Shown here: one piece after another, positions 29,450 to 50,673 of the stretch | Layout: each line of letters opens with the position of its first letter | Numbering within the stretch: position 1 is the stretch's first letter | NCBI GenBank assembly: GCA_030390025.1 | Contig: CM059431.1 | Coordinates: 137,704,001 to 137,768,000, forward strand | Length of the DNA stretch: 64,000 bases | DNA from: Squalus acanthias | Taxonomy: Eukaryota | Direction: 5' to 3' | The notes under the pieces: generated by a model | The model's input: only the letters and a program-made list of their open reading frames with translations | Database searches by the model: none | What the model was told of the DNA's origin: nothing | Program-made: the position numbers and the translations under genes

Positions 29450-30080
29450 TAAGAACATAAGAAATAGGAGCAGGAGTAGGCCAATTGGCCCCTCGAGCCT
29501 GCTCTGCCATTCAACAAGATCATGGCTGATCTGATCCGAACCGCCAATCTACTATCACAGATCCATCTCCTGAATCTAACAGAATTGGACACACGAAATA
29601 GGAGCAGGATCAGGCTACACGGCCCCTGGGCTCGCTCTGCTACCCACAGGGCCATTTCCGATCCGAAACTAGACTCATGTCCAAATTCCTGCCCGCTCCC
29701 CATAACCCTTATTTCCCTTTACTTCTAGGAAACTGTCTATTTCTGTTTTAAATGTATGTAATGATGTAGCTTCCACAGCTTTTTGGGGCAGCATATTCCA
29801 TTGACCTACCACACTCTGAGTGAAGTTGTCCTCCTCATCTCAGTTTTGAAAGAGCAGCCCCTTATTCTAAGACCAAGCCCCCTAGTTCTAGTTTCACCCA
29901 ACATCGGGAACATTCTCCCCGCATCCACCCGATCCAACCCCTTCACAATCTTATATGTTTCAATAAGATCGCCTCTCATTCTTCTGAACTCCAATGAGTA
30001 GAGTCCCAATCTAGCCAACCTCTCCTCATATGTCCATCCCCTCATCCCCGGGATTAACCGAGTGAACCTTCTTTGTACTG
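29450..30080 (-). mobile_element. 5'-truncated CR1 LINE with (TTCTTATG)n tail
   Basis: Minus ORF YEERLARLGLYSLEFRRMRGDLIETYKI; ATAAGAAC x3 tail at 29450-29465; same subfamily as 45871-46283 and 50269-50673. Confidence 0.92.
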
Positions 30081-31036
30081 ACTTTCACTAGACTGTGCAT
30101 TGATACCAGACTCATATCTTTTGGTGAGTCGTACCCAGGTGGTTTACATTAAGAAGGGATGGGACAGGATAGGTGGAAGCGAAAACTTCCGTTCGTTGAA
30201 GGATCAAGAACTAACGGCCAGAGATTAAATGATAAATGTAATAGATTTAGAACTAACGGTGGGAGAAACCTCTTTACATGCAGTGTTGTGAGACTGTGGA
30301 TATAATGGAGGCAGAAGTTATATCAATATTGAAGAATAAATTGCCAATGTGTCTGAATATAAATAGGTTGAAGGGATGTTTGAGACCGTGTGGGTGAAGT
30401 CATTGGAACTATTTGCTCGGGTGGAGGGTAAAAGTCGACAAGGACGGCTTGGGTGGAATGGACTATAACATTCCAACATTGTAATGACCAGTTGTGATTT
30501 TCAGTAAATATCTGTGAACAAAGATGTCTAATGTCACATTGACGCGTAAATTCCTACTGTCTGCATCATCAGACACTGATCAGGAGACTGGGACCCGTTC
30601 TATTGGTCCAGGAGACAATGGGGGGCGGAGTCTGATGTTGAGACCAGCGCCTGCACCATTCACACCGAGATTACAGAATTACAGATAACCACCATTGTAA
30701 CACGTTGTTTCTACACTAAAGAAAACTTTAACTGTTAATTAAACAGGGGTGTCTCATTCCAGTACCTGCGGTGTGAGGCAGTTATCGCTGACGCCCACAT
30801 GTTCTGCTCGACTGCTGAAGCTCAATCATGACTGTTCTCTTTGAATCTTGAGCGGGAAGGGCGCTGTTTCAGCAGGAAACGATTATGTTCACCCGGGGAA
30901 AGCATCCGACATAAAACACACGGCACAAAGTGGAAGAAATGTTTTCTGATACCTGTTCATTCTCACAACAACAATCTGCTTTCGTCCTAACAGAAAGACA
31001 AACATTCTAAAATAAAACACGGGCTATAATTTTACT

Positions 31037-33966
31037 CTAGTTAGGACAGGAAGCTTTGTTTTGACTTTTCATTTTTTTACCCAATATCAGAATAAATGCC
31101 CAAGGAGATTTCACCAGCTTCTTCAGCTCTTCCCTGAATTTAGTTTGTGTAGCTGCATAAATACAAGTGTTTGTACAGGAACTCAAATACATCAGCAGAT
31201 ATCCGGTTTCAGTGGCGATGTAAGCAGGCGATATGTAATCGCCTCGGTGATGCACGGCCAGGTTGTTAACTATAAAACTCACGGCAGACGTCAGCCAAAA
31301 CAATACAAAACTGCCCGATACAGTGAACAGTAAAATGATGGATTTCCTTCGGTTCTCCATCTCTGGATCGCTCTGATTGTCACTGCTTTGACCCCGGAAT
31401 CCCCTGCGGGCTCTACTGGCCACTAAAATACGCCTGACTGTCAAACAATTAAGCAGTAATATCAAAACAAAAGGAAGCCACGTAATTAAAATATTTTCTA
31501 AGCGGAAGTAGGCTGCACCTGCAGGCGATGAAAAAAAGGCCACACTGGGGCGGAATCCCCAGGGAACGTTGTTGATTATTTGTTTGTGTTCATATGCAAA
31601 CCAAAATGGGATGTTCTCTAAATAAACCAGGACAGAGACCGTTGTTATAACCGCGGCCGCAGTTCTCACTGTGCAATACTTTGTTTTCAACTTCTGACAA
31701 CATATAGCTACAAATCGGTCAAATGTGAAGGAGACGGTAAACCACACTGACATATCCAGGTTGGCACTACACATATACATCATGAACTTACAAACGGCAG
31801 TGTAGGACAGGAATGAATATGGGAAATGTTTACTCAAAATGTGATATACGATTACATTGAGGATCATGACCAGTAGATCTGCTGTTGCCATGGCCACCAT
31901 GTAGACCGAGATACATTTGGAAAGGCCGCATTTTCCTCTGACGAGAATCACCATTGTCAACAGGTTCGCTGTAAGAAAGAGTGACAAGAGTAAGTAATGG
32001 AGACACTCGGATAAATCTTACATCGTATTGTGGGGAGATGAACCGAAGTGTTCCTACTGAAGGTTATGCACACGTTATTATATAGACGAACATTGACAAT
32101 CGACCTTTTCAAACGAAAATACTCATTAAACACTCAATATCGAGGGACTGAGAATGCGCCGTCCTTCCAGCACACTTCAGTCAGACTGTGTCAAATTGGT
32201 GGGTAGGGGTGGGTGCTGGGAGGGTCGCTCGTATTCAGTATCGGCAATGGTAACGGATAGTGACCCCAACACCACCGACAACCAGGCACTGATGGCTCAA
32301 CGGAGGGGAATTTTGACTTTGGGCGACAGTGTAAAACGGGCGACTCCGGATCAGCCGTTCATGATACATCTCTTCCGAATCAATCTCCATCGCTATCGCC
32401 ACTGACACTATATTCATGCATGAAAACAGAAAATTCTGGAAATACTCAGCAGGACAAGCATTATCTGTGGAGAGGAAAATAAAGTTTACGTTTCATGTTG
32501 AAACCATTCGTTTGAAATCCATTGAGGCTCCATTCACACTTTAACGCTGCGGTCCAGCTCAAGCCGCAGTCCCTGGCAGGGACGGTACAGTAACAGATTA
32601 AAGTCCCTTAAAGGGCAACCTTGGATGTTTCTGTAACTTGATAATTTTCACAGTCAATAAACAAGCGGATTCCCTTACATACACAAAAAGACACATTCCA
32701 TTGCAGTGTGGAGCGCTGAAATTTTCCCGCCATGAGGCTGGGACCATGTGATATACCGCGCCAATTTGATGAGTTACTACAGCGACCCGAGGGAGCAATC
32801 GATGGAATTTTACATTTACAAGCGGGATCTCGTGAGCGGCATCAGATGTCAGTTGTATTCAATATAATATACAAACAATTACTGGAAAGATATTAATTTA
32901 AATAAAACATTCAGCTGTGCCACAAACATTCGATGTACTTCGAAACTCTGCGATTTTACCATATAGAAACATAGAAACTAGGAGCAGGAGTAGGCCATTC
33001 GGCCCGTCGAGCCTGCTCCACCATTCAATACGATCATGGCTGATCATCCAAATCCAGTACCCTGTCCCTGCTTTCTCACACAGAATCCCCATCGAGCCTG
33101 CACCGACACATATCCCACCCTATCCCCGTAACCCCACGTATTTAATTCCCCCTAACATATCCCATCCTATCCCCGTAACCCCACACATTTAATCCCCCCC
33201 TAACACTAAGGGTCAATTTATCATAGCCAAATCAACCTAACCCGCACATTTTTGGACTGTGGGAGGAAACCGGAGCACCCGGAGGAAACCCACGCAGACA
33301 CGGGGAGAATGTGCAAACTCCACACAGACAGTCACCCGAGGCCAGATTCGAACCCGGGTCACTGGCGCTGTGAGGCACCAGTGCTAACCACTATGCCACC
33401 GTGTTGCCAAAATGTAGCTGCTCGGGAGCTGCTCGGGAGCTGGTGGAGGCGCGAAGGTTCTTTGCAGCGGAGGGGAGGGGAACAGCGCCCTGAGCGGCAA
33501 TTATTGCTCCAAATATCATTCACAGTCCTCTGATAGGAGGAGGTGGCTGCACTATAAGGAATTATCAACTTAAAGTAGATAGGGAACAACGGTACAGATG
33601 AAATGATTACCATGGACACCAAGCAACACATTCTTTAATGATCTATGTACTACTGGAGGGGCCGGGGAATCAGCCTCGCCCTTCCTCACTTTACGGAGGA
33701 AAGTTGAGTGCCCGGTGGCCACGATCGAGCGACCAGAACAGCGCCTCAGCGGCCCCGGGGACTGATAGGATTCCCGCTGATATTCACCGACTTATCCCGG
33801 TGGATCAATGACTCTGCAATGAGGACATGCTCGGAATATGTTACATTAACACTGAGATAGTCAACAGCTGTTAGACAACAGAATACATTGACTTACCGGG
33901 AGCCCCAAAGGTTGCGAGAACTGGGTAGTAAATTTGCTTTATCTGTAGAATTGTTGGCAGTTCCAT
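31037..33966 (-). CDS. gpr139-like: GPR139-like class A orphan GPCR, 2 coding exons (33966-33897, 31968-31037), 333 aa; ECL2 Cys replaced by Phe
   Basis: Exon 1 MELPTILQIKQIYYPVLATFGAP then G|GTAAGT; acceptor TTTCTTACAG|; same 70-nt first exon as the + copy; ATADLL, FDRFVAIC, SSCTNTCIYA motifs; frame open. Confidence 0.9.
32962..33075 (-). mobile_element. Short CR1 3' tail in the GPCR intron
   Basis: ATAGAAACATAGAAACTAGGAGCAGGAGTAGGCCATTCGGCCC. Confidence 0.8.
33080..33408 (-). mobile_element. tRNA-derived SINE (HE1/V-SINE-like) in the GPCR intron
   Basis: Minus-strand A box TGGCATAGTGG, B box GGTTCGAATC, then TGTGTGGAGTTTGCACATTCTCCCCGTGTCTGCGTGGGTTTCCTCCGGGTGCTCCGGTTTCCTCCCACAGTCC (V-domain-like). 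Confidence 0.88.
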
Positions 33967-34735
33967 TTTAAAAAACTGTGCGAAATCTGTCCAGCTTTAC
34001 GGTTCGGACTGGAGTGTATCTGAGATCAGTAAATACTCCCCATTTATAGAACAATCGGGGCCCAGGTCAGAAAAAAACATGTTACACAATAAGTGGCGTT
34101 AGTTACAGTCACTTAACAAACAAGGGGCGATTTTCCGCTTCAGTGCGCCCGGCCGCAAGTGGGGAAATTGTATGGAAAGTAATCCCAGAGGGAATGTGCC
34201 CTGCGCATGGTCCCTGAACGCTGAATGGAACATCCCTCCTGGTCTCTGCCTTAGGCTCTTGAGGTTTCAAATCCATTCGCTGAAAATCTTACTCATCCAT
34301 TGCATTAGCTAAATTTGTTTTTTTACTGCAATGATACCGAGTGATAATTCCGCTTTAATATTACTGGCAATGATTCATCGCTTACAATACTAGTGATGAC
34401 TCCTCTCTAACATTGCTGGCGGTGATCCTACTCTAATATTAATGGCAATGAGGCTACGCCGACTTTAATGCTGGTGATCCTATTCTACCGTTACTGGTGG
34501 TGATTATAATCTAAAATTACCGCTGGTAACCCAACATAAAAAAAAACTGGTTGATACCACTCTACCATTATTACTGGTAAAGATATACTAAAATTACTGA
34601 TGTTGATCTTATTGTAATTAATGGGGATGACCCTACTCCAGCATAATTGTAGTGACCATACTCTAACATTACTGGTCTTTGGTCCTACTCTAACATTAAT
34701 GGTGGTGACTCTACTCTACCATTATTGTGGTTAAC

Positions 34736-36313
34736 TTTAGAATTCGCAAAATTATCGCGATTTTATAATAACGAGAAGGAGACATAAAGTTTCGTATGAA
34801 CAGCTTTATTTCAGCAGAATGCTGTCATGTTTCAAAAGGGACACAAGCAGCCTGTAAAATGGCCACCACGCCTCGTGGCAGAAGGTTCTAGACTTTCAGT
34901 AGGCAGACAAGATGGCGTTTCATTAAACATTTCAGCAAGATCGGACAGGACTCAGCACATTGGAGATAATGACAAGACGCGATGGGTTTGCATTTTAAAC
35001 ATAAATACTGGAATCGGTTTTCCAGGTCTATTGTACTGGGCGATCAAGGACCCATCCAAAGACATTGATATGCGAATTCCCCACGGCTCTACGATGAGAG
35101 AGCCGTTCGCGGGTACTTACAGCAAGCATTTGGAAGCCCCAAAACCCCTCCAGGGAGACTCCTAGCCGGTTCCACAATGGGAGAAATATTAACGGGTACT
35201 CAGACACTTACAAGCATCACCGAGACCGATTAACGACAAGTACCACTCCATACAAGAAGATTGAGCACCAAAACATGACAAAAGATGGACATTAAGATTG
35301 GGCGGGAGATAAGGAATTACAGTACTATAAACTGTAGTGTCCAAACGTCCATCTTTCTCTTATCCTCTGGCTGTTCATCGTGCTCTTAGTCTTTACCACC
35401 GACTGGAGCTCTGGACTCTCATTCTCTGATCCACTGATTTTCCGGGAGTCAACCTCGTGGCTTGCCGCGAAGATCTGTGGAGAACTGGTCTGCGAAGGCC
35501 AGTAAAACGGGCGCACCATCCCGAGAAGTCGGTAAACGGTGTTGGAACCGAAGGCCCGAGAGGAGATGAGATGAGATGAGATGAGAAGAGAAGAAGACGA
35601 CAACACGTATCGCCACGGTCAGTAAGCCCCGACCGCGCCTGTAAATCGATTAGACTCTTCTTCGAGTTCTACTGAACCAGTGTAGGGCACAGGAAGACTC
35701 TTTTTCGAGTGGTGTCCGAACTCCGAGGTCAACACAGATCTTCATTGCAGCAGACGGTCCAGCCTGCTAGCCGGAGCAAAGCGAGTAAACAAGTGGGTTA
35801 CAGAGACCCCGGATCAACACGTGAATAGTCAGGTGTTGCCGAGCAGCGTTTTGGAATTCTCTGAGTTATCACGAGTGGTGAGCATGAGTCTCGATCCTAC
35901 AAATCTAGATTAGGACAGGTATTGATAGGGGAGGGTTTATGTTTTAAGGATAATTATAATGTGTGTCCCCTTTTACGATGTGTCGTGCGCTCCTCGTTTC
36001 CCTAAACCTAGTTGCATAAATGTGTGTAAGTTTGTACTGTCAGTAATCTGTGCTTATGACATGTATTTCGTAATCTTGAATAATATGCAATAAAGATTTT
36101 CCATTTCGCACTGTTCAACCGGGTCTAACTGAGTTTTTCTCTACATTATTGTTCTCGCACCTAAGTCCAGTGTCAGAACCGTAAGGGCGAGTGGGTCGAA
36201 CCACTCACAGGTGTCTCGTGCTACCAGGCTGGCTAGAGACCAGAATAGGCAACAAGGCCTAACCCCGCACTAGCACCCAGGCTAAGCACAGAGCCACGGC
36301 GAAACCCCTTACA
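34736..36313 (+). repeat. 5' LTR (1578 bp)
   Basis: Starts TTTAGAATTCGC (TG mutated to TT), ends CCCCTTACA; about 35 substitutions plus one 5-bp (GAGAT)n indel versus the 3' LTR by manual count. Confidence 0.96.
35295..35335 (+). promoter_or_regulatory. Candidate LTR promoter: inverted CCAAT/GC box and TATAAA (35326-35331)
   Basis: GATTGGGCGGG followed ~25 nt later by TACTATAAAC; TATA retained in the 3' LTR. Confidence 0.5.
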
Positions 36314-36318
36314 GACAA

Positions 36319-36336
36319 TGGCGACCACGAAGGGAC
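36319..36336 (+). promoter_or_regulatory. Primer-binding site, tRNA-Arg(UCG)-like
   Basis: TGGCGACCACGAAGGGAC 5 nt after the LTR; its reverse complement GTCCCTTCGTGGTCG-CCA matches, from memory, the 3' end of a vertebrate tRNA-Arg(TCG). Confidence 0.85.
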
Positions 36337-36379
36337 ACTGGCAGCGAGAAAATAATGTGTTAGACCTTGGTATGAATGG

Positions 36380-38140
36380 GTGAAATGTTATGGAAGAGGG
36401 AATAGCAGATTATGTTTTTGGAAAAGTGAATTTTCTAAGAGATGGATAAGTGACCTGCTGGTGGATAAGCGTCCACTAGAGGCAGCCATGAGGTGGACAG
36501 GTAGCAAGGAACATAAAAAATCTGTAGAGAAAGCTGTCTGGCTGATGTGTTATAAAAGGCAAGTCCAGATTTCGGACCAGGTCATCGTAGCGCAGGCAGC
36601 TCAGATCAATTGTTTGGAGGTGGAGATGGACGAGAAGGTCGCGAGGGGGCAGCAGCTCATCGCGTCTTTAAATGCGTTGCATCAGGAATGCCAGTTAGTC
36701 GCCAACCACCATGAGGCGAAAATAGATTACCTCGAGTGCCAGGTCACTGAGGCCAAATTAAATGAGGGCAGAATAAGGGAACGATGTGCCCGCCTAGCTG
36801 CTCAAATAAAAGCCCAGGAAGAGAGCTTAAAGGGGGTTAGGGCGGCATATAAGATGGCCCTCGAGGATAAACATGAGGGGGCCGACCACAGCGTCTGCCA
36901 GAGAGAGATAGGGAACCTTAAAGAGGCCCTGAATAAAGCGCACTGCATGGTGTGCCTCATCAGCCCGTCAGCGCACCAGCCGCAGGTGGGTGGGGAATTC
37001 CAAAAATCCCTACCAAACAAGGCACAGGAGGTATTTGCCACTGCACCCTCCGTGCCGCCCAGCTATTCGGCAACCTGGGTAAGGGAGGAAGTGGTAGAAG
37101 TAGAGGAAGAGGTCCCCGAGGTAGTACAGCTCCCGGAGGTAGTAGTGAAGCCGGGACCATTGTGCCCGCTTACAGGTATCAAGAGGGGCCCGAACGGAGA
37201 CGATGGGGAAGAGGGGAATCTCCTCAACCAGCTTGTGTTGCCTCACAGCGCACACCAGCTGAGGGCTATGATCAGCCACGTACGGAAGCTGTCCGAGTCA
37301 GACAACCCTTCCGTACATTTCAGGGAGGTAGAGCAGACCGCAGCCATTAACGGCTGCGACGATGGGGAAAGGGCAAAAATGCTGCTGGTCTCCTTAGACA
37401 GCTCGATCCTCCAGTGTCTCTCAGACGCGAGCAAAAGGGGAGATCATACCTATGGGGAATTGAGGGACGAGGTCCTGGAAGTGTTGGGAGCGGACGATGA
37501 AGGTTCGTTCGTTAGATTGGGACAGACAGTGCAGATGGAGGGAGAACCCCCGAAGGTTTTCACCGACAGGCTGTGGCCTGTCTATCAGCGTAGTTGCCCA
37601 GGCGCGCCCGAGCGTGTTGATTTAGACGGTGTTGGTTTAGCTCACTGGCTCAGATATATAGTACCCAACAGCTTACCAGCCGTGAGGGAGCAGGCAAAAG
37701 CGTGGTTTGATCCCAATAACGCCGCCACAACAGAGGAGTCGGTCCTAAATCGACTCACGGTAGGGTACCGTAATACTAGGAGCACGGGAGCGCGTCCCCT
37801 TAAGGGAAAGGTGCATGAGGCACGGCCCAGCGCCCCGGCTCAAAGGGAGTGGCATCAGGAGGGAAATCGCGTCCCACGAGCCAGTAATGCTTGTTTCGGG
37901 TGCGGAAAGACAGGGCACTGGCGCAACAACTGCAGGAACACTTGGAAAGAGTCCAGGGATAAAAATCCCGCAGCCCGAGCCCAGGTGCCTGCCCCCGATA
38001 AGGGAGCTGGTGTGCCTATCCATCCCGATGCGATAGAATCAATGCTGGGAGCCATGCGGACCCTCATGATTTCGCAAGGCTGGGTGACAGTCGCTACCGG
38101 CCCCGCAGATGCCGCAGCCCCATCTGCCGGTACCCAATGA
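36380..38140 (+). CDS. gag: Gag polyprotein (coiled coil, capsid-like region, CCHC zinc knuckle); start uncertain (frame open from 36356, first ATG 36488)
   Basis: Long ORF directly after the PBS; CFGCGKTGHWRNNC (CX2CX4HX4C) at 37892-37933; heptad-rich N-terminal third. Confidence 0.9.
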   Translation: MKCYGRGNSRLCFWKSEFSKRWISDLLVDKRPLEAAMRWTGSKEHKKSVEKAVWLMCYKRQVQISDQVIVAQAAQINCLEVEMDEKVARGQQLIASLNALHQECQLVANHHEAKIDYLECQVTEAKLNEGRIRERCARLAAQIKAQEESLKGVRAAYKMALEDKHEGADHSVCQREIGNLKEALNKAHCMVCLISPSAHQPQVGGEFQKSLPNKAQEVFATAPSVPPSYSATWVREEVVEVEEEVPEVVQLPEVVVKPGPLCPLTGIKRGPNGDDGEEGNLLNQLVLPHSAHQLRAMISHVRKLSESDNPSVHFREVEQTAAINGCDDGERAKMLLVSLDSSILQCLSDASKRGDHTYGELRDEVLEVLGADDEGSFVRLGQTVQMEGEPPKVFTDRLWPVYQRSCPGAPERVDLDGVGLAHWLRYIVPNSLPAVREQAKAWFDPNNAATTEESVLNRLTVGYRNTRSTGARPLKGKVHEARPSAPAQREWHQEGNRVPRASNACFGCGKTGHWRNNCRNTWKESRDKNPAARAQVPAPDKGAGVPIHPDAIESMLGAMRTLMISQGWVTVATGPADAAAPSAGTQ

Positions 38141-39253
38141 CTAGAGCCCACGCAGCCTGCCTACCTGTGTCCTTTTAAAAGACACGCACAGGAGGGGGTC
38201 TCCTGTGAGGAGGCCAGGTTAAAAGAGCAGGCCCTGCGGGAGGAAAACGCCCGCTTAATAGGGAAAGTAGACGAGCTAGAAGGGCAGCTTAGAGAGCAGG
38301 CCTTACGGGAGCAGAACGCCCGCTTAATGGGGAAAATAGATGGGCTAGAAGGGCAGCTTAGAGAGATAAAAGCAGCCTGCAGGGTAGCCAGAAGCAGGAA
38401 GTATGAGGATTTTAACCAGTGCAAGCTGTATAAGCCGGGTGCACAAGGGCAAACCACAGGGGCCAAACCTGTGAGTAGGGACTCGCAGCCCCGGGTAGGG
38501 CCACAGGGCACACAGGCAGGCAAAGCAGCTGACATCAGGGGAGAGGACATCCTAGCAAAATGTAGGATCCTTTATTGGGGTTGGGAGTCAGATGAGGAAG
38601 AGTTCGAGGAGCTCGACCAAGATCGTGACACAAGCGAAGAGGAGCTGGAATCGGAGGACGAAAGGGTCGCCACCGATTCAGGTAAAGGGAAGATAGGGAC
38701 TGCAGATGGAGATCCACACAGGGTGGAGACAGAAGCTGCAGGTCCCGAACTCAGTGGGGCGGGGCTAGGGGAGGCGGAGCCAGCGGCTGTAGTGGGACCA
38801 CAGGACGTGGCAATGGAAGCCTCAGAACCCAGTTCGTCCGACTTGAACGTCTTGCCCTCGAGGGAGGTAGGGACTGCGAGTGAAGGTCCGCCTACTGGGC
38901 CAAGTAGGGCGGTGTCAGAGGCTGCAGATCCCGAGTTCAGGGAGGCGGATTCAGGGGAGGCGGAGCCAGCGACTGTGGTGGGACCACGGGTCGCCACGGT
39001 GGAAGTCTTGAAACCCGGTCCGTCAGTCCTGGAGTTCCTGCCCACGGTAGTTCCCCGTAGGTCAAGTCGGACACCCCAGCCCAGGATGATGTGGGTAAGT
39101 CCCCAGAGTGTCCCAAGGCGTAGGGTCAAGGCTAAGGCAGCCCAGGGAGATCCCAGTCCCAGCGCAGCAGCAACAGGCTGCGGCAGATCAAAGGGAGGGG
39201 TCAGCACCCTCCCACCGTTGGGAAAAGCTTGTGGCCGCCTTCACAGAATTTGA
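38141..39253 (+). CDS. Gag readthrough extension ('ORF X', 370 aa) in the pol position: duplicated Gag-like coiled coil, acidic repeats, basic tail
   Basis: Same frame as gag; I translated 38141-38326 with no stop, joining the listed ORF 38327-39253; gag stop context CAA-TGA-CTA-G. Confidence 0.72.
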   Translation, partial: LEPTQPAYLCPFKRHAQEGVSCEEARLKEQALREENARLIGKVDELEGQLREQALREQNARLMGKIDGLEGQLREIKAACRVARSRKYEDFNQCKLYKPGAQGQTTGAKPVSRDSQPRVGPQGTQAGKAADIRGEDILAKCRILYWGWESDEEEFEELDQDRDTSEEELESEDERVATDSGKGKIGTADGDPHRVETEAAGPELSGAGLGEAEPAAVVGPQDVAMEASEPSSSDLNVLPSREVGTASEGPPTGPSRAVSEAADPEFREADSGEAEPATVVGPRVATVEVLKPGPSVLEFLPTVVPRRSSRTPQPRMMWVSPQSVPRRRVKAKAAQGDPSPSAAATGCGRSKGGVSTLPPLGKACGRLHRI

Positions 39254-39482
39254 GTAGGCCGCCCTGGGAACGGGCGGCGCTGTACAGTTTATAAGATAAG
39301 TGATAAGTTTTAGTTTGGAAGTTTTGTAAGCTTTATATTAAATGTTAATAAGTAAAAGTAATGATGGGCGTTTAGATTAGGTTTAGTTAAAAGATCTATC
39401 CAGTGCACATGTCTTCTTACGTGAGGCGAGGTCAGGGGACCCGCTCACCCTTCACAAAAGCCAGAGACTCTTGGGAGGCTGG

Positions 39483-39506
39483 CTACCTCATTCTATCTGA
39501 TCACAG
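39483..39506 (+). promoter_or_regulatory. Candidate env splice acceptor
   Basis: CTACCTCATTCTATCTGATCACAG|G, 13 nt before the env ATG at 39520 (AGGATGG). Confidence 0.5.
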
Positions 39507-39519
39507 GAACCAAGGAAGG

Positions 39520-41945
39520 ATGGAACGGATTCTGGTAGAGCTCACGGCACTTGGATGTGGATTGGCCTATCGAGGCCGCACCAAGGATGTTGTGGTGTTT
39601 GGATGCTCCGGTGACACGGCCCCCATCGCGGTGGATGGGACCGGGAGAAGAGAGGCTGAGGAGACCGCCACTGATTTCCACAAGGGAAGGTGGCCAGGAT
39701 GGCTGGGAACGAATTCCACTGAGTATTCCAGTACATCGGGATTTGCCTACAAAGAGACTTCTTTAATGTGCCCCAAAGTGAGGATCATCGCACCCAGAGT
39801 CAGCGTCACCTTCGGCAAACGGATTTGTTTGACTTGTAATGGGAATGTCCCATTGAGCCGATGGTGGTGGCTATGAAAGCTGAGCAAAAACATGAGGAAA
39901 TCTTCGGTCGAGTGGGAGCGACTGGATAATAATACCCATCGGACAATTACGGGGACTGACGGACAATTGAAAGTCTGTTGGGACAAATGGTGGGAACCGG
40001 ATGAGGGAATTTATGTGTGTATGTGGGGGTCGAAGCACGTCTGCCCCAAAGGCATCTCCATATTTTTCATCAATCAGTGGCAGGATAATGGGAAAGGGAT
40101 GAGGTGGGATGCAAGCACCAGGGGGTGCGGGGCTCCATACTCTCCGATCCCGGTAAATGCCACTGAACTCATTACGCGCCCACACAAGGCCCCGCCCACA
40201 ATTCCGGTGGTTCTAGCTAAGGAAGAAGGGTGCCCTAAAACCAGTAAGGGACCCGGGAATGGTTTGGTACTGGTCCCTACAGACAAGCTACTGTTTCAGG
40301 GGGTACATTATGTGGTGGCTTCGGTGATTTTAAATCTCACCGAGATGCGGTTGCCAGAATGGTGCCCCAAAGAGACGGAACAATTGTACCAGGTCCTGTT
40401 GACCAAGATGTTTAGGCAATTTTATGAGTTCGATTTCGCGGAAATTGATAAAACGAGTTTGTACACCGCACCACATGAAGTTTTGGGCCAGGTGGGGAGG
40501 CAAAGAAGGGGTATTGTGAACGATATGTTCACCGCTTTTAATACAGGAACATCTGTGGTCAACGCTCTAGACAACGTGGAGCTGCAGACCCAGGTTAATG
40601 GTTTAAAAACACAATTAAAGAATATCCTCACCGACGAAAATAAGGTGGTTGGGTCTGGGTTACATGAGGACAAGGCCATGACTCTCCATTTGAAGGAAAA
40701 TATTGCTGAGCTGGAGAAACATGCGCGTACGGTAAATGCCCTGATTAGGGAAGATCGGAATGCATCCGATCAAGCTGCGCAGAACGAGGTGTGCGTACTA
40801 TACGGGGCGTGGTTACTGGGCGAGGGCCGCAGTAATTTAAAGGATTTAAAACAAGGTTTGGTCCCCTCCTGGATAAGTAACAAACACCTGCAGGTGCTCC
40901 ACCCTTTTCAGAATGCATTAAGTCCGTGCCAGCTCAGGCTAGCTTCAGAAGCATACCCAGTCCCCGTGGACTGCGGACGATCAAACCACACCATTATGGG
41001 TGTAGTTTTACGTATGCCGGTTTTGGGCGACACAGCAAAGACCGCCCCGGTATATCGGGTAGAGAACATTGGTGTTATTCAGGGGGGAGCCCACATTCGC
41101 TATGCAGCGGTTCCACCTTACGTCATCCGCTGGGAGCAAACGATGACAGGTACAGATCTCTCTGGTTGTCGTGGCAGGGGAGCACACATAATCCTGTGTC
41201 CCCAGCACTTTATTGCCTTTTTAGCACTACAGTGCGGGTTCAGAACGGCTGGCGCCAAGCCCATGAATTGCACCATGGAGGCAATGGCACAAGATCATGT
41301 GCCTCCGCAGGTAGCATACATCGGGGTGGAACATATTGTGTTACCACTGCAGCGCAACTCTACCAGCATGGAAAGCGTAGCCGGTGTCCGGTGAGTGACA
41401 GCAGTTTCTGTTTTAAACCCAGGGCTGAAGTTCAAGTGGCACAGCAGCGAATTGTCCCGATCCCTGAACCATCCACTGTTCATCTAACAGTAAAAGAGAA
41501 TTTTACCGACTTGCAGCGATTCGTCGCGCATTTCGGATACCTCATTCCCCCTCTCCCTGAACACCTCACCAAACTTTTGAAAGCCGTAGCGGTTTCGCAG
41601 AAACATTTTTATACCCTTGAGCAAAAGACCGTCGAGATAGGGTCAGAGATCCTAGACATAGTAATCCCGCCGTGGTGGGATCTGTTCACCAACATTGAAG
41701 TGCCTTCCTGGATTAGAATAGCCTCCCACATTTTAGTTCTATGCCAGGTAATAATTGTAGTGTACCTATTGGTCGTGCATTGCAAGAGGGGCAAGCGCCT
41801 CACCAAACAGGAAAACACGGGAGAGTGGCGAGAGCGTTACGTGCGCGTGCACGAAGAAAGCGCCTGCGTAAATGACCAGAGTGACGTCACTCCAGTTTTT
41901 TCATGTGTGTCTCGAATTTGTTTACGGATTGTTATTTTTTCTTAG
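39520..41945 (+). pseudogene. env: env: signal peptide, Ig-like domain, F-type class I fusion glycoprotein, TM anchor (~808 aa reconstructed); one in-frame stop (39874) and one frameshift (~41323-41326)
   Basis: ORFs 39403 and 39892 share a frame; furin site RQRR|GIVNDMFTAFNTG at 40498-40510; heptad repeat; Cys-rich middle; TM IASHILVLCQVIIVVYLLVVHC; 8 N-x-S/T sequons. Confidence 0.87.
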
Positions 41946-42306
41946 AACCTGTAATTAAGTTTGGAACTCTATATGTTTAAGAGTTGTTTTAATTGTTTTG
42001 TTTTGGTGTTGTTGAATTATGGTTGTTTGATTGTTTGGTTTTTCTTTTCCTTGAATAAAAAAATAAACACATGCATATACAGGTGGTGCAAGAGGCATCG
42101 GCCTGTCACACATGGAGGACAAACACGCGGTGTAAGTTAAAGGCAGATGCTGCCTACGGTTATAAGAATGTAATTTTTCCCTGGGAAATAAGGACGACAC
42201 GGAGACCCTAGATAGTTTTAAGTTAAGGGAGTATTTGGATATGGAGAATCGAGATAATATTGCTCACCACAATGTTTTTGATATGATAAGCGGAGTTATT
42301 CGCATC

Positions 42307-42318
42307 AACAGGAGGGAC
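42307..42318 (+). promoter_or_regulatory. Polypurine tract
   Basis: AACAGGAGGGAC immediately before the TG of the 3' LTR. Confidence 0.7.
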
Positions 42319-43901
42319 TGTAGAATTCGCATAATTATCGCGATTTTATAATAACGAGAAGGAGACATAAAGTTTCGTATGAACAGCTTTATTTCAGCAG
42401 AATGCTGTCATGTTTCAAAAGGGACACAAGCAGCCTGTAAAATGGCCGCCACGCCTCGTGGCAGAAGGTTCTAGACTTTCAGTAGGCAGACAAGATGGCG
42501 TTTCATTAAACATTTCAGCAAGATCGGACAGGACTCAGCACATTGGAGATAATGACAAGACGCGATGGGTTTGCATTTTAAACATAAATACTGGAATCGG
42601 TTTTCCAGGTCTATTGTACTGGGCGATCAAGGACCCATCCAAAGATATTGATATGCGAATTCCCCACGGCTCTAGGATGAGAGAGCCGTTCGCGGTGACT
42701 TACAGAAAGCATTTGGAAGCCCCAAAACCCCTCCAGGGAGACTCCTAGGCGGTTCCACAATGGGATAAATATTAACGGGTACTCCGACAGTTACAAGCAT
42801 CACCGAGACCGATTAACGACAAGTACCACCCCATACAAGAAGTTTGAGCGCCAAAACATGACAATAGATGGACATTAAGATTTGGGGAGAGATAAGGAAT
42901 TACAGTACTATAAACTGTAGTGTCCAAACGTCCATCTTTCTCTTATCCTCTGGCTGTTCATCGTGCTCTTAGTCTTTACCACCGACTGGAGCTCCGGACT
43001 CTCATTCTCTGATCCGCTGATTTTCCGGGAGACAACCTCGTGGCTTGCCGCGAAGATCTGTGGAGAACTGGTCTGCGAAGGCCAGTAAAACGGGCGCACC
43101 ATCCCGAGAAGTCGGTAAACGGTGTTGGAAACGAAGGCCCGAGAGGAGATGAGATGAGATGAGACGAGATGAGAAGAGAAGAAGACGACAACACGTATCG
43201 CCACGGTCAGTAAGCCCCGACCGCGCCTGTAAATCGATTAGACTCTTCTTCGAGTTCTACCGAACCGGTGTAGGGCACAGGAAGACTCTTTTTCGAGTGG
43301 TGTCCGAACTCCGAGGTCAACACAGATCTTCATGACAGCAGACGGTCCAGCCTGCTAGCCGGAGCAAAGCGAGTAAACAAGTGGGTTACAGAGACCCCAG
43401 ATCAACACGTGAATAGCCAGGTGTTGCCGAGCAGCGTTTCGGAATTCTCCGAGTTATCACGAGTGGTGAGCATGAGTCTCGATCCTACAAATCTAGATTA
43501 GGACAGGTATTGATAGGGGAGGGTTTATGTTTTAAGGATAATTATAATGTGTGTCCCCTTTTACGATGTGTCGTGCGCTCCTCGTTTCCCTAAACCTAGT
43601 TGCATAAATGTGTGTAAGTTTGTACTGTCAGTAATCTGTGCTTATGACATGTATTTCGTAATCTTGAATAATATGCAATAAAGATTTTCCATTTCGCACT
43701 GTTCAACTGGGTCTACCTGAGTTTTTCTCTACATTATTGTTCTCGCACCTAAGTCCAGTGTCAGAACCGTAAGGGCGAGTGGGTCGAACCACTCACAGGT
43801 GTCTAGTGCTACCAGGCTGGCTGGAGACCAGAATAGGCAACAAGGCCTAACCCCGCACTAGCACCCAGGCTAAGCACAGAGCCACGGCGAAACCCCTTAC
43901 A
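42319..43901 (+). repeat. 3' LTR (1583 bp)
   Basis: TGTAGAATTCGC...CCCCTTACA followed by TSD CAAC (43902-43905). Confidence 0.96.
43677..43682 (+). terminator. Candidate LTR polyadenylation signal
   Basis: AATAAA (36089-36094 in the 5' LTR) followed by GT/T-rich sequence. Confidence 0.55.
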
Positions 43902-45870
43902 CAACCTATTCTATGATTACTAGCGTTCACTCTCCTCAAAAATTACTGTCGGTGAAGCTATCTAACATTGCATGTAGTAACCATACTGTAATATTACTGG
44001 TGGGGGCTCTACGCTAATATTATTGGTAGTGATTCTACTCTAACATTAATGATGGTGACCCTAATCTAACATTAATGGTGGTGACGCTAATCTAAAATTA
44101 CTGGTGTTGACCTTGCGCTACCATGAATTGTGGACACCCTACTCTAACATTACTGGTGGTGACCCTACTCTCTCATTACTGGTGGTGACTCTACTCTAAC
44201 ATTACTGGTGATGACCCTAATCAAACATTAATGCTGGATACCATATTCTAACATTACCGTTGGTGAATCAAATCTAACATTACTGGTGGTGACACTACTG
44301 TAACATTTCTGGTGGTGTATATACTCGAACATTACCGGTGGTGACCCTACTCTAACGTTACTGGTCTTTGGTCCTACTCTAACCTTAATGGTGCTGACAC
44401 TACTCTACGATTATTGTGGTCAACCTACTCTATGATATCTAGCGGTCACCCTACTCAAAAATTACTGGCGGTGAAGCTATCTAACATTACATGTAGTAAC
44501 CATACTGTAATATTACTGGTAGGGGCTCTACGCTTATATTATTGGTAGTGATTCTACTCTAACATTAATGGTGGTGACCCTACACTAACATTAATGGTGG
44601 TGAAACTAATCTAAAATTACTGGTGGTGACCTTGCGCTATCATGAATTGTGGAGACCCTACTCTAACATTACTGGTGGTGACTCTACTCTAACATCACTG
44701 GAGGTGACCCTAATCAAACATTAATGCTGGATACCATATTCTAACATTACCGTTGGTGAATCAAATCTAACATTACTGGTGGTGACACTACTGTAACATT
44801 TCTGGTGATGTATATACTCGAACATTACCGGTGGTGACCCTACTCTAACATTATTGGTGGTGACTCTACTATAACATTACTGGTGGTGGCCCTACTCTGA
44901 AATTACTGGTGGTAACTCTACTCTAACATTACTGGTGGTGACTCTACTCGAACATTACTGCTGGTGACCCTACTCTAACATTACTGGTGGTGATCATACT
45001 CTAACATTATTGGTGGTGACCCTACTCTAACATTACTGGTGGTGACCATACTCTAACATTAATGCTGGTGACCCTAATCTAAAATTACTGGTGGTGACCT
45101 TGCGCTATCATGACTTGTGGAGACTCTTCTCTAACATTAAGGTGGTGAACCTAATCTAACATTAATGGAGGTGCCATTAATCTATCATTAGTGATGGTGA
45201 CCCTACTCTCACATTACTGGTGGTGACTCTACTCTAACATTACTGGTGGTGACCCTAATCAGACATTAATGCTGGATACTTACTCTAACATTACAGTTAG
45301 TGACTCAAATCTAACATTACTGGTGGTAACACTACTGTAACATTGCTGGTGGTGTACATACTCGAACATTACTGGTGGTGATTCTTCTCTAATATTACTG
45401 GTGGTGACTCTACTATAACATAACTGGTTGTGACCCTACTCTGACATTACTTTTGGTAACTCTCCTCTATTATTACTGGTGGTGACTCTACTCTAACATT
45501 ACAGGTGGTGACCCTTCACTAACATAACTGGTGTTGACCCTATTCTAACATTAATGGCGGTGACCCTACTCTAACATTACTGATGGTGACCCTACACTAA
45601 CGTTACTGGTGGTCACACTACTCTAACATTAGTGGAGGTGACGCTACTCTAACATTACTGGTGGTGACAGTACTCTATCATTACTGGTGGTGACACCAAA
45701 CTAACATTACTGGTGGTAACCCTACACTAACATTACTGGTGCTGACCCTACTCCAACATTACTGGTGTTGACTCTACTCTAACATTAATGGTGGTGACCC
45801 TACTATAACTTTACTGTTGGTGACCCTACTTTAACATTACCGGTGGTGAATCTACTATAACATTACTAGT

Positions 45871-46283
45871 GGGCATAATCTTATAATAAGGGGATGCTCT
45901 TTCAAAACTGAGATGAGGAGAAACTTCTTCACTAAGAGGGTAGTAAGTCTGTGGAATTTGCTGCCCCAGGAAGCTGTGGAAGCTACATCATTAAATAAAT
46001 TTAAAACAGAAATAAACAGTTTCCTAGAAGTAAAGGGAATTAGGGGTTACGGGGAGCGGGCAGGACATTGGACATGAGGCTGAGTTCGGATCGGTCAAGG
46101 TCCTGTGGGTGGCGGAGCGGGCCCAGGGGCTGAGTGGCCGGGTCCTGCTCCGACTTCTTGTGTTCTTTAGATTTGAGGTTATGATCAGATCAGCCATGAT
46201 CTTATTGAGTGGTGGAGCAGTCTCGTTGGGCCGATTGGTCTACTCCTGCTCCTATTTCTTATGTTCTTATGTTCTTATGTTCT
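45871..46283 (+). mobile_element. 5'-truncated CR1 3' end in the satellite, copy A
   Basis: FKTEMRRNFFT coding end and (TTCTTATG)n tail; flanked by TAACATTACTAGTGG on both sides. Confidence 0.9.
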
Positions 46284-49200
46284 TAACATTACTAGTGGTG
46301 ACTCTACTCTAACATTAATGGTGGTGACCCTACTTTAACATTACTGGTGGTGAACCTACACTAACGTTACTGGTGGTGACTCTTCTCAAACAGTGCTGGT
46401 GGTAACCCTGCTTTAACATTACTGATGGTGAACCTACTGTAACATTACTCGTCTTGACCCTTCTCTAACATTACCTGTGGTGACCCTACTTTAACATTGC
46501 CGGTGGTGAATCTACTATAACATTACTGGCGGTGACCCAATTTAACATTACTGGTGGTGACTGTACTCTAACATAACTCGTGGTGACCCTACTCCAACAT
46601 TAATTGAGCTGACCCTATTCTAACATTACTCGTGGTGACACTACTATAACATTACTCGTGGTGACTGTAATATAACATTACTGGTGGTGACCCTACTCTA
46701 ACATAACTGGTGATGACTCTACTCTAACATTGCTGGTGGTGACCCTACGCTAACATTATTGATGGTGAGACTACTCTACCATTAATGGAGTTGACCCTAC
46801 TCTAGCATTAATAGTTGTGACTCTACTCCAGTATTACTGGTGATGACCCTAATCTAACATTACTGGTGGTGACTCTACTTGAACATTACTGTTGGTGACA
46901 CTACGCTAACATTATTGCTGGTGATCCTACTCTAACATTAATGGTGGAGATTCTACTCTGACATTAATGTTGGTGACCCTACTCTAACATTACTGGTGGT
47001 GACCCTACTCTCACATTACTTGTGGTGACGCTACACTAACAATAATGCTGGTTACCCTACACTAACATTACAGGTGATGACCCTGCTATAACATTACTAG
47101 TGGTGACCCTAATCTAACATTACTGGCGGTGACTCTACAACATCATTACTGGTGGTTACTCTACTCTAACTTTATTGGTGGTGACCCTACACTATAATTA
47201 CTGGTGTTGACACTTCTCTAAAATTAATTGTGTTGACCCTACGTTAACAGTACTGGTTGTGACTCTACTCTAACATTACTGGTGGTGAACCTACTGTAAC
47301 ATTAATGGTGGATAATCTACTCTAACATTACTGGTGTTGACCCTACTATAACATTAATGGCGGTGACCTTAATCTAACATTACTGGTGGTTACCGTACTC
47401 TAACATTAATGGTGGAGACTCTACTCTAATATTACTGTCGTTGACCCTACTCTAACATTAATGGCAGTGACCCTACTTTAACATTACTGGTGGTGACTCT
47501 ACTCTAACATTACTGGTGGTGAGCACACACTAACATTAATTGAGGTGACTCTTCGCTAACAGTACTGGCGGTGACTCTACACTAACATTACCGGTGGTGA
47601 CCCGACTCTAACATTACTGGTGGTGACTCTACTCTAACATTACTGGTGGTGACCCTACTCTAACATTACTGGTGGTGACCCTACACTAACATTACTGGTG
47701 TTGACCCTACCCTAACATTACTGGTGGTGACCCTACTCTGTCATTACTGGTGGTGACTCTACTCTAACATTACTGGTGGTGACCCTGCTCCAACATTACC
47801 GGTGTTGACACTATACTGCCAGTGCTGGGGTTAACCCTACTTTAACATTACTGTTGGTGTACCTACTGAAACATTACTGGTGGTGACTGTACTCTAACAT
47901 TACTGATGTTGACTCAACACTACCAGTACTGGTGTTAACCCTACTTTAACATTACTGTTGGTGTACCTACTGAAACATTACTGGTGGTGACTGTACTCTA
48001 ACATTACTGTTGGTGACTCTACTCTAACATTACTGGTGGTGAACTATAACATTACTCGTGGTGACTGTACTCCAGTATTACAGGTGCTGACCCTACTCAA
48101 TCATTACTGGTGGTGACCCTACTATACAATTTCTGGTGGTGTATTTGCTCTAACATTGCTGGTGCTGAATCTACTATAGCATTACTGGTGGTGACTATAA
48201 TCTAAAATTACTGGTGGTGACGCTACTCTAACAATGCTGGTGGTGACCCTACTCTAACATTACTGGTGGTGACGCTACTCTACCATTAATGGAGGTGACC
48301 CTACTCTAACATTAATCGTGGTGACTCTTCTCCAGTATTATTGGTGGTGACCCTAATCTAACAATACTGGTGGTGACTCTACTTGAACATTACTGTTGGT
48401 GACGCTACGCTAACATTACTGGTGGAGATCCTACTCTGACATTAATGGTGGAGACTCTACACTAACATTACTGGTGGTGACCCTACTCTAACATTACCGG
48501 TGGTGACCCTACTCTCTCATTACTGGTGGTGACTCTACACTAATAATAATGCTGGTTACCCTACTCTAACATTACTGGTGATGACCCTACTATAACATTA
48601 CTAGTGGTGACCCTAATCTAACATTACTGGCGGTGACTCTACACCATCATTACTGGTGGTTCCTCTACTCTAACATTACTGGTGGTGAACCTACTCGAAC
48701 ATTAATGGTGGAGAATCTACTCTAATATTACTGGTGTTGAACCTACTCTAACATTAATGGCGGTGACCTTAATCTAACATTAATGGTGGTTACCCTACTC
48801 TAACATTAATGGTGGAGACTCTACTCTAATATTACTGTCGTTGACCCTACTCTAACATTAATGGCAGTGACCCTACTTTAACATTACTGGTGGTGACACT
48901 ACACTAACATTACTTGTGGTGAGCCCACACTAACATTAATTGAGGTGACTCTTCTCTAACATTACTGGCGATGACTCTACACTAACATTACCGGTGCTGA
49001 CCCTACACTATAATTACTGGTGTTGACCCTTCTCAAAAATTAATTGTGTTGACCCCACGTTAACAGTACTGGTTGTGACTCTACTCTAACATTACTGGTG
49101 GTGAACCTACTCTAACATTAATGGTGGATAATCTACTCTAACATTACTGGTGTTGAGCCTGCTCTAACATTAATGGCGGTGACCTTAATCTAACATTACT

Positions 49201-50268
49201 GGTGGTTACCCTACTCTAACATTAATGGTGGAGACTCTACTCTAATATTACTGTCGTTGACCCCACTCTAACATTAATGGCAGTGACCCTACTTTAACAT
49301 TACTGGTGGTGACTCTACTCTAACATTACTGGTGGTGAGCCCACACTAACATTAATTGTGGTGACACTTCTCTAACATTACTGGCGTTGACTCTACACGA
49401 ACATTACCGGTGGTGACCCCACTCTAACAGTACTGGTGGTGACTCTACTCTAACATTACTGGTGGTGACCCTACTCTAACATTACTTTTGGTGATCATAC
49501 TCTAACATTAATGGTGGTGACCCTACTCTAACATTACTGGTGGTAACCATACTCTAACATTAATGCTGGTGACCCTAATCTAAAATTACTGGTGGTGACC
49601 TTGCACTATCATGACTTGTGGAGACTCTTCTCTAACATTAATGTTGTGACCCTAATCTAACATTAATGGAGGTGCCATTACTCTAACATTAGTGATGGTG
49701 ACCCTACTCTATCATTACTGGTGGTGACTCTACTCTAACATTACTGGTGGTGACCCTAATCAAACATTACTGCTGGATACCCTACTCTAACATTACCGTT
49801 GGTGACTCAAATCTAACATTACTGGTGGTGACACTACTGTAACATTGCTGGTGGTGTATATACTCTAACATTACTGGTGGTGATCCTACTCTAACATTAC
49901 TGGTGTTGACTCTACTATAACATTACTGGTTCTGACCCTACTCTGACATTACTGGTGGTAACTCTCCTCTATTATTACTGGTGGTGACTCTACTCTAACA
50001 TTACAGGTGGTGACCCTTCACTAACATAACTGGTGTTGACCCTATTCTAACATTAATGGCGGTGACCCTACTCTAACATCACTGATGGTGACCCAACACT
50101 AAAATTACTGGTGGTCACACTACTCTAACATTAGAGGAGGTGACGCTACTCCAACATTACTGGTGTTGACTCTACCCTAACATTAATGGTGGTGACCCTA
50201 CTATAACTTTACTGGTGGTGACCCTACTTTAACATTACCGGTGGTGAATCTACTATAACATTACTAGG

Positions 50269-50673
50269 GGGCATAATCTTAGAATAAGGGGCTGCTCTTT
50301 CAAAACTGAGATGAGGAGAAACGTCTTCACTCAGAGGTTAGTAGTTCTGTGGAATTTGCTGCCCCAGGAAGCTGTGGAAGCTACATCATTAAATAAATTT
50401 AAAACAGAAATAAACCGTTTCCTAGAAGTAAAGGGAATTAGGGGTTACGGGGAGCAGTCAGGAAATTGGACACAAGGGTGAATTCGGATCGGTCAAGGCC
50501 CTGTGGGTGGCGGAGCGGGCCCAGGGGCTGACTGGCCGTGTCCTGCTCCTAATTCTTGTGTTCTTTAGATTTGAGGTTATGATCAGATCAGCCATGATCT
50601 TATTGAATGGCGGAGCAGTCTCGTTGGGCCGATTGGCCTATTCCTGCTCCTATTTCTTATGTTCTTATGTTCT
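50269..50673 (+). mobile_element. 5'-truncated CR1 3' end in the satellite, copy B
   Basis: Same truncation point and flanks as copy A, 4398 bp downstream. Confidence 0.9.

Follow-up and report, generated by a model that had tools for sequence, protein, structure and literature searches.

The stretch of 64,000 nucleotides from Squalus acanthias analysed here (assembly GCA_030390025.1, contig CM059431.1, positions 137,704,001 to 137,768,000 of the forward strand; hereafter the window, in whose own positions all coordinates are given) harbours a complete long terminal repeat (LTR) element at 34736-43901 on the plus strand. The element is a copy of an endogenous retrovirus (ERV) without pol, inserted in a 26-bp satellite, and carries gag, an open reading frame (ORF) in the slot of pol, and env. 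This copy is dead, is one of very many and as assembled yields neither Gag nor Env whole. Here, we propose that its broken env would encode a fusogen of the paramyxovirus F type (class Ib) with a probable immunoglobulin (Ig)-like domain in front, likely a receptor-binding head, and we give this reading a probability of about 0.7.

In-frame alignment of two relatives, P0009 and P0050, begins at 39541-39547 and places the start of env near 39520, some 700 nt upstream of position 40255, where the original prediction, made from the sequence alone, had begun the gene. Position 40255 marks the start of the F scaffold and not that of the gene, and an N-terminal module of about 240 residues had been missed. 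The feature itself is real, but its two breaks had gone unmentioned, one a stop codon (39874-39876) and the other a frameshift (near 41325). In three of four runs the bulk of the contig depth disagrees with this copy at the frameshift, so that the break looks either private to it or like an assembly error.

All parts of env lie on the plus strand. A likely signal peptide with about 65 conserved residues (39520..39770) is followed by the probable Ig-like domain, V/I-set-like in type (39770..40080), with a B-strand Cys, a C-strand Trp cluster and a D-x-G-x-Y-x-C motif at 40000, and with the stop codon inside it. A Pro/Thr-rich linker (40080..40230), apparent from its sequence and from low predicted local distance difference test (pLDDT) scores, leads to an F2-equivalent segment of about 86-87 residues (40231..40509) that runs from a conserved C-P-xn-G motif through the furin site RQRR (40498-40509). 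The predicted fusion peptide (40510..40566) is placed by its position past the furin site and by its alignment to the fusion peptide of human parainfluenza virus 3 (HPIV3). Heptad repeat A (HRA) and the domain III helices (40567..40851), the Cys-rich domains I/II (40852..41552) with the frameshift, heptad repeat B (HRB; 41553..41666), and a Trp-rich membrane-proximal stretch, transmembrane segment (41718-41774) and cytoplasmic tail (41667..41945) complete the gene. The furin motif was found exactly where it had been claimed, but it comprises residues 327-330, with cleavage at residue 330 of about 805, and can be called early, as had been stated, only when counted from the beginning of the F scaffold at residue ~245 (nt ~40250). 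Its distance from the core motif, 87 residues, lies within the ~85-110 at which the scaffold of a class Ib fusogen is expected to have a basic cleavage site.

The fusion core

The succession of parts that had been described behind the furin site is largely upheld. The fusion-peptide-like GIVNDMFTAFNTGTSVVNA stands directly after RQRR, although its hydrophobicity is mild (19-residue Kyte-Doolittle mean 0.55). In the heptads that follow, 67% of a/d positions are hydrophobic as against 20-23% elsewhere; the Cys-rich ectodomain, put at roughly 400 residues, spans about 404 from cleavage to the transmembrane segment and has about 10 Cys; and a second helix with heptads (82% at a/d), the Trp-rich stretch, the transmembrane segment (Kyte-Doolittle 2.62) and the tail are all present. 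Neither env piece contains a CX6CC, CXnCC or LQNRxxLD-type immunosuppressive motif, again as stated. In the part of the F core that was read, seven of eight Cys recur in 84% or more of the relatives covering each, which argues that the layout is not due to chance.

Searches with profiles and predicted structures pointed to the same class of protein. A profile of 26 relatives run against 177,635 PDB sequences had HPIV3 F0 as its top match (E 3e-6 and 3.5e-6), and the two line up in the same order from the F2 Cys over the cleavage site, the fusion peptide and the Cys-rich domains to HRB. From the atlas came clusters of Baculo_F, Gypsy env and Fusion_gly, all at 0.93-0.95. An AlphaFold model was made of the window's own protein (residues 1-605, up to the frameshift, with X at the stop); its mean pLDDT was 55, with most of the core at 70-90. 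All 36 PDB matches listed by Foldseek were F proteins of paramyxo- or pneumoviruses (best E 3.8e-8). Among 48,161 chains compared by VIA-align, parainfluenza virus 5 (PIV5) F came first (Z 10.4, rmsd 6.8, 266 aligned residues), the top 11 rows were all F proteins or foamy virus Env (PDB 8RM0/8RM1; Z 8.5, rmsd 4.6, 248 aligned), and the first unrelated chain scored Z 5.1; residue 245 of the model pairs with F residue ~26. In BFVD, fusion proteins of lispiviruses, paramyxoviruses and baculoviruses lead, and the Envs of walleye epidermal hyperplasia virus 1 (WEHV1, E 7e-6) and of the dermal sarcoma virus of walleye (WDSV, E 3.5e-5) match too; the best single match there is an entry without a name, A0A384ZVF2 (928 aa, E 9.8e-10).

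Several results count against such an assignment. The Foldseek matches have low TM-scores (0.2-0.3) and large rmsd, the model as a whole has a predicted TM-score of 0.45 with 300 of 605 residues below pLDDT 50, and Pfam scans of single proteins, the window's included, gave no PF00523, Baculo_F or Gypsy match. Among the sequence searches of Pfam and PDB, F0 was reached only by the profile. Searches of PDB by phmmer with P0001 and with P0037 likewise returned 0 matches. On the profile and structure searches, the claim of an F-type class I fusogen in place of a gamma- or beta-type surface/transmembrane (SU/TM) Env is nevertheless well supported.

To read the gene as a gamma-type Env of the classical SU/TM kind, or as a membrane protein of the host, is by comparison most improbable. 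Gamma-type Envs can indeed bear an N-terminal Ig variable (IgV)-like receptor-binding domain (RBD; bioRxiv 2024.03.17.585361), and a 4-bp target-site duplication (TSD) together with a Gag knuckle is typical of ERV1 (PMC4299795, Table 1). Such a protein would, however, be expected neither to lack CX6CC and the immunosuppressive domain, nor to have some 400 residues of ectodomain past the cleavage site, nor to produce F-type fold matches. No TLV_coat match was seen in the Pfam scans, and neither that family nor a non-viral protein, the outcomes named beforehand as contradicting an F-type Env, emerged as best match. The gene moreover sits between gag and the polypurine tract (PPT) within paired LTRs.

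Among known systems the paramyxovirus and pneumovirus F proteins (HPIV3, PIV5, mumps virus, Nipah virus, respiratory syncytial virus and human metapneumovirus) are the best matches, collinear in F2, cleavage site, fusion peptide, HRA, domains I/II, HRB and transmembrane segment at 10-17% identity to the window's Env. They have no built-in head and most rely on a separate attachment protein (PMC11468914). According to the same source, class Ib comprises F, spike and foamy Env, and its scaffold accepts receptor-binding modules N-terminally or as insertions. Foamy Env is likewise a retroviral Env on a class Ib scaffold with a receptor-binding module of its own, but its RBD is inserted in the N-subunit and has its own fold (PMC11468914), whereas the window's Env has its module, probably an Ig-like one, at the N-terminus, the arrangement of coronavirus spikes. 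The predicted structures of the walleye epsilonretrovirus Envs (WEHV1, WDSV) match more weakly than viral F and belong to far longer proteins (1159-1317 aa in BFVD).

The N-terminal module

Residues ~85-185 contain a Cys, a Trp cluster and the motif D-E-G-I-Y-V-C, and three weak tests agree in making an Ig-like fold probable for this part. Pfam Ig_3 was matched at E 0.17 by the window's protein, at 0.0027 by P0050 and at 0.0085 by P0017; a head profile of five sequences, run against PDB, found nothing but the Ig domain of CRTAM, in 2 sequences (E 0.062 and 0.13); and VIA-align of the model placed TREM2, TLT-1, TREM-1 and NKp44 on residues 88-186 (Z 3.8-4.2). On the other side of the balance, all Ig scores fall short of curated cut-offs and the model of the head is of low confidence. 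No host donor gene for the module was recognisable.

Across the five close-relative sequences the head has 49 invariant columns. Ig-like N-termini occur also in distant relatives: P0024 bears the UniRef name 'Ig-like domain-containing', and P0037 matches V-set at E 0.045. The heads may not be homologous, however, and homology is only weakly suggested by a head HMM, which in a search over seven sequences matched the heads of P0024 and P0036 weakly (E 0.003-0.005) and that of P0037 not at all; this too tells against our interpretation. The start of the core, taken at C-P-xn-G, lies at residue 20-22 in eel and coelacanth, at 154-189 in five proteins, of which three show Ig-like features and two another Cys-rich domain, and at 230-238 in the window's subfamily (238 here). 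This variation indicates that the N-terminal slot is modular.

From its position and from precedents on other scaffolds, the Ig-like module is likely a built-in receptor-binding head. IgV RBDs on gamma-type Envs, including a captured SIRP-like RBD (bioRxiv 2024.03.17.585361), and the capture of nectin3 by CrocERV31 (PMC4299795) similarly put an Ig-fold module in front of a retroviral Env or in its stead. These cases concern class Ia SU/TM Envs or the replacement of env, whereas the module described here would sit on a class Ib F scaffold. It could instead be a shield, a decoy or an immune-modulating domain, or no Ig domain at all, with attachment left to the F core, and we hold this to be improbable but deserving of weight. 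Headless relatives (P0038, P0044) exist and the Envs of lokiretroviruses (Loki) are headless, so that the core can presumably enter cells alone, and the Ig matches are weak and are to immune receptors (CRTAM, TREM family). Conservation of the head in close relatives argues against this alternative, as does a location that corresponds to that of the RBD in coronavirus spikes and in IgV-bearing gamma-type Envs.

For the preferred reading, that of an F-type fusogen with a receptor-binding head, a course of events can be proposed. By analogy with F and foamy Env, the protein would enter the pathway via its signal peptide, and a furin-type protease would cut at RQRR as in class Ib proteins. The N-terminal piece, comprising head and F2-equivalent, would stay in a metastable trimer, probably disulphide-linked, until head binding and/or low pH released the fusion peptide for insertion, after which the two heptad repeats would close up on each other as a six-helix bundle.

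F-type retroviral Envs are already known from Loki, foamy virus and errantivirus, and what would be new is an N-terminal Ig-like head on an F scaffold. If true, such a head represents a third way of fixing a receptor-binding module to a class Ib scaffold. Neither an Ig-headed F-type Env nor such a shark clade was found described in PMC open-access and bioRxiv text, the literature covered here, to which subscription journals do not belong.

Relatives and lineage

The closest relatives of the Env are from sawshark and skate (68-77% identity), and among 30 relatives looked up 19 are from sharks or rays and 3 from other vertebrates (frog, coelacanth and eel), in agreement with the chondrichthyan origin that had been suggested. 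In an Env tree of 16 rows, built with neither an outgroup nor sequences of Loki or of viral F, sharks form subclades of their own and frog, eel and coelacanth fall into one group; the tree gives no placement of the family. The search for related loci yielded no relative in metagenome contigs or viral contigs and no locus bearing pol; the one locus found from P0022 (L001, 52 residues at E 6e-4) is probably fortuitous and was discarded. In several shark gene models (P0010, P0015 and P0022) Env pieces are fused to host genes, Niban-like or for C2H2 zinc fingers, or to pol remnants. These are probably annotation chimeras, with exonisation as the alternative. Apparently full-length open Envs are annotated as host genes in P0024 (bamboo shark), P0036 (frog), P0037 and P0044 (eel), and these are possible co-opted fusogens.

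The second source of evidence on lineage is gag (36318..38140, plus strand), which encodes a long N-terminal coiled coil, a Ty3/Arc-like capsid region and one CCHC knuckle, and ends in TGA-CTAG; a frameshift lies near 36430. The sole database relative of Gag, skate P0045, aligns from 36318 at 56% identity. Pfam recognised zf-CCHC, matches to PDB sequences were confined to the knuckle, and the capsid region resembles Ty3/Arc/Retrotrans_gag clusters among the atlas look-alikes. The model of Gag was too poor (pLDDT 40, with matches either to coiled coils or insignificant) and was therefore left out of the placement. The gag ATG overlaps the primer-binding site (PBS), so that translation would begin 4 nt past the LTR, with the leader within the LTR; the first codons are the PBS itself, and skate P0045 begins likewise. 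The stop (TGA-CTAG, 38138-38144) is in frame with the ORF behind it. UGA-CUAG is a common and convergent readthrough context (PMC13517186), and a stem-loop behind the stop was no better than in shuffled sequences (z -1.46, 18/200).

The original prediction had called the env lokiretrovirus-related, and this part was not established. The F fold is also found in the Envs of foamy virus, walleye epsilonretroviruses and errantivirus, and an F-type Env is therefore not diagnostic of Loki; the published Loki Envs seen with an N-terminus lack the head. The sole pol fragment tied to this type of Env, an RNase H joined in the whale-shark gene model P0022 to an Env 39% identical to the window's, looks nearer to snakehead retrovirus (SnRV) than to Loki. 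In a hand count over an 18-residue stretch it shares 10 residues with SnRV, 7 with fish foamy-like ERVs and 2-5 with 15 Loki rows, and it has DGS where all 15 Loki rows have DGC; in the reverse transcriptase (RT) tail motif SnRV and murine leukaemia virus tie at 6/11. We see about even odds that the lineage and helper are SnRV-like or of another basal non-Loki kind. What speaks against this is that P0022 is an ab initio model, so that its pol and env pieces could stem from different insertions, that the stretch compared is short, and that Gag resembles its Loki counterpart in layout and in the TGA-CTAG stop, which keeps Loki in play.

The element could be the first lokiretrovirus (lokiortervirus) of cartilaginous fish, non-autonomous, with an Env that gained an N-terminal head and a helper pol from Loki; we regard this as rather unlikely, if the strongest of the other proposals on lineage. 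Loki Env (PMC7947760) has an F-like core with an RXKR site, a furin cleavage about 85 residues into the core, a fusion peptide, a coiled coil and a transmembrane segment, and opens with a G-P-x-x-G-I/L-V-L motif, the same as the core here. In Loki Gag, too, the N-terminal part forms a long coiled coil ('smc'), a Ty3/MLV-like capsid is expected of it, and TGA-CTAG ends gag in several members, namely at least three of four Loki entries labelled 'Gag protein', while SnRV has UAGGGC (PMC13517186). Derivatives of Loki without pol are known as well (BHIKHARI). A tether with an RNase H of the Loki/foamy type and a CGIN1-like integrase would mark a Loki pol. Against Loki, the core follows the signal peptide directly in that group, whereas some 240 residues precede it here, and none of the 17 Loki Envs whose N-terminus was displayed has a head (18 of 23 entries were displayed, one a fragment). 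The Cys pattern differs by eye, pol is absent from the window's element, and its CCHC knuckle had no visible counterpart in the displayed parts of the four labelled Loki Gags, one of which was displayed to its end. In the Loki screen of PMC7947760 all six genomes of sharks, rays and chimaera stand without a positive mark, the asterisk being taken as such a mark since it stands on the known-positive species, yet Env relatives occur in four of these six species. The DGS of the P0022 RNase H and the convergence of the readthrough context also argue against Loki.

A mosaic, in which a Loki- or Ty3/Gypsy-like Gag was joined by recombination to an F-type Env of another lineage and no single family label applies, appears doubtful, and less probable than a Loki derivative. 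It would accord with the nearness of the Gag capsid region to Ty3/Arc/Retrotrans_gag clusters, with the frequent incongruence of Env and pol in fish and amphibian ERVs (bioRxiv 2021.11.23.469661) and with the presence of F-type env on invertebrate Ty3/gypsy elements (bioRxiv 2023.10.26.564294).

For its enzymes the family would have depended, as it spread, on a relative that bears pol and provides them in trans, and since many copies have kept env, particles may have been the vehicle of spread. This helper would somewhat more likely have been a basal non-Loki retrovirus of the SnRV kind than a lokiretrovirus. The SnRV clade is present in cartilaginous fish, where elephant shark has CmiERV lineage I, which is SnRV-like (PMC4422223; PMC12193657). 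SnRV itself differs from the present element in its gag stop, as noted, and no SnRV-like 3' accessory ORFs were identified in the window's element.

Should an SnRV-like pol be the carrier, F-type Env would be far more widespread among basal retroviruses than published. Such a spread would bear directly on the origin of retroviral env, for which four scenarios have been drawn (PMC7947760). The wider Env clade escapes Pfam and screens seeded with gamma and beta Envs, such as that of bioRxiv 2021.11.23.469661, which used only these. A bolder proposal, which we consider speculative and likelier to fail than to hold, is that of an undescribed vertebrate-wide clade of F-type Envs (sharks, rays, frog, coelacanth, eel) in which the N-terminal slot can be swapped, here for a captured host Ig head as receptor binder, and whose carriers are non-Loki retroviruses. 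If true, then together with the foamy, walleye epsilonretrovirus and Loki Envs it would make class Ib F-type the ancestral retroviral envelope and the gamma/beta SU-TM type a later replacement. This would reverse the preferred model, in which Loki and canonical retroviruses acquired Env independently; independent Env origins are preferred in PMC9040795.

The provirus and its surroundings

The provirus is complete in its outer structure, all on the plus strand. The left TSD of 4 bp (34732..34735), inside the 26-bp satellite, differs by one mismatch from the right copy (43902..43905). The 5' LTR of 1578 bp (34736..36313) and the 3' LTR of 1583 bp (42319..43901; TG...CA) are 97.8% identical. The PBS (36319..36336) begins 5 nt past the LTR and has a reverse complement ending in CCA, with a putative likeness to the 3' end of a tRNA-Arg, and the PPT (42310..42318) adjoins the 3' LTR. 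The LTRs are unusually long (1.58 kb), with AATAAA at LTR position 1355.

The LTR pair has 35 mismatches over 1580 aligned bases (Kimura two-parameter distance 0.022), and the excess of transversions (19) over transitions (16) may reflect assembly error in a satellite-rich region. At the mammalian rate of PMC7947760 the insertion would be about 5 million years old, and at the shark rate assumed in PMC4422223 about 50 million; its age is thus poorly fixed. In two DNA runs, 6,074 and 10,130 short contigs map across all 30 interior bins, which fits a high-copy family. Two runs presumed to be RNA also have contigs over all 30 bins, a distribution that is no proof of transcription.

Within the provirus, neither motifs nor Pfam matches were seen for protease, RT, RNase H or integrase. 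The slot of pol is occupied by ORF2 (38141..39253, plus strand), 370 codons in frame past the gag stop, with a coiled-coil repeat, a block of acidic residues (51% D+E) and a tail rich in basic ones. It contains duplications of 69 bp and 141 bp and no known domain, and no motif of the four pol enzymes was found in it either. Comparison of ORF2 with P0022 gave no significant match, so that an origin of ORF2 as a pol remnant is unsupported.

The window is rich in tandem arrays. The 26-bp satellite that served as the target of the provirus occurs in both orientations at 1-2094 and 43935-53519, while 10064-23330 is taken up by an array with 577 copies of a 23-bp unit and 7566-9862 by one with a 48-bp unit. 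About 2.7 kb upstream of the provirus lies an intronless ORF for a G protein-coupled receptor of the rhodopsin family (31037-32017, minus strand; 7tm_1, E 5e-20). A short ORF at 29806-30084 on the minus strand may be the C-terminal end of ORF2 of a CR1-type long interspersed nuclear element.

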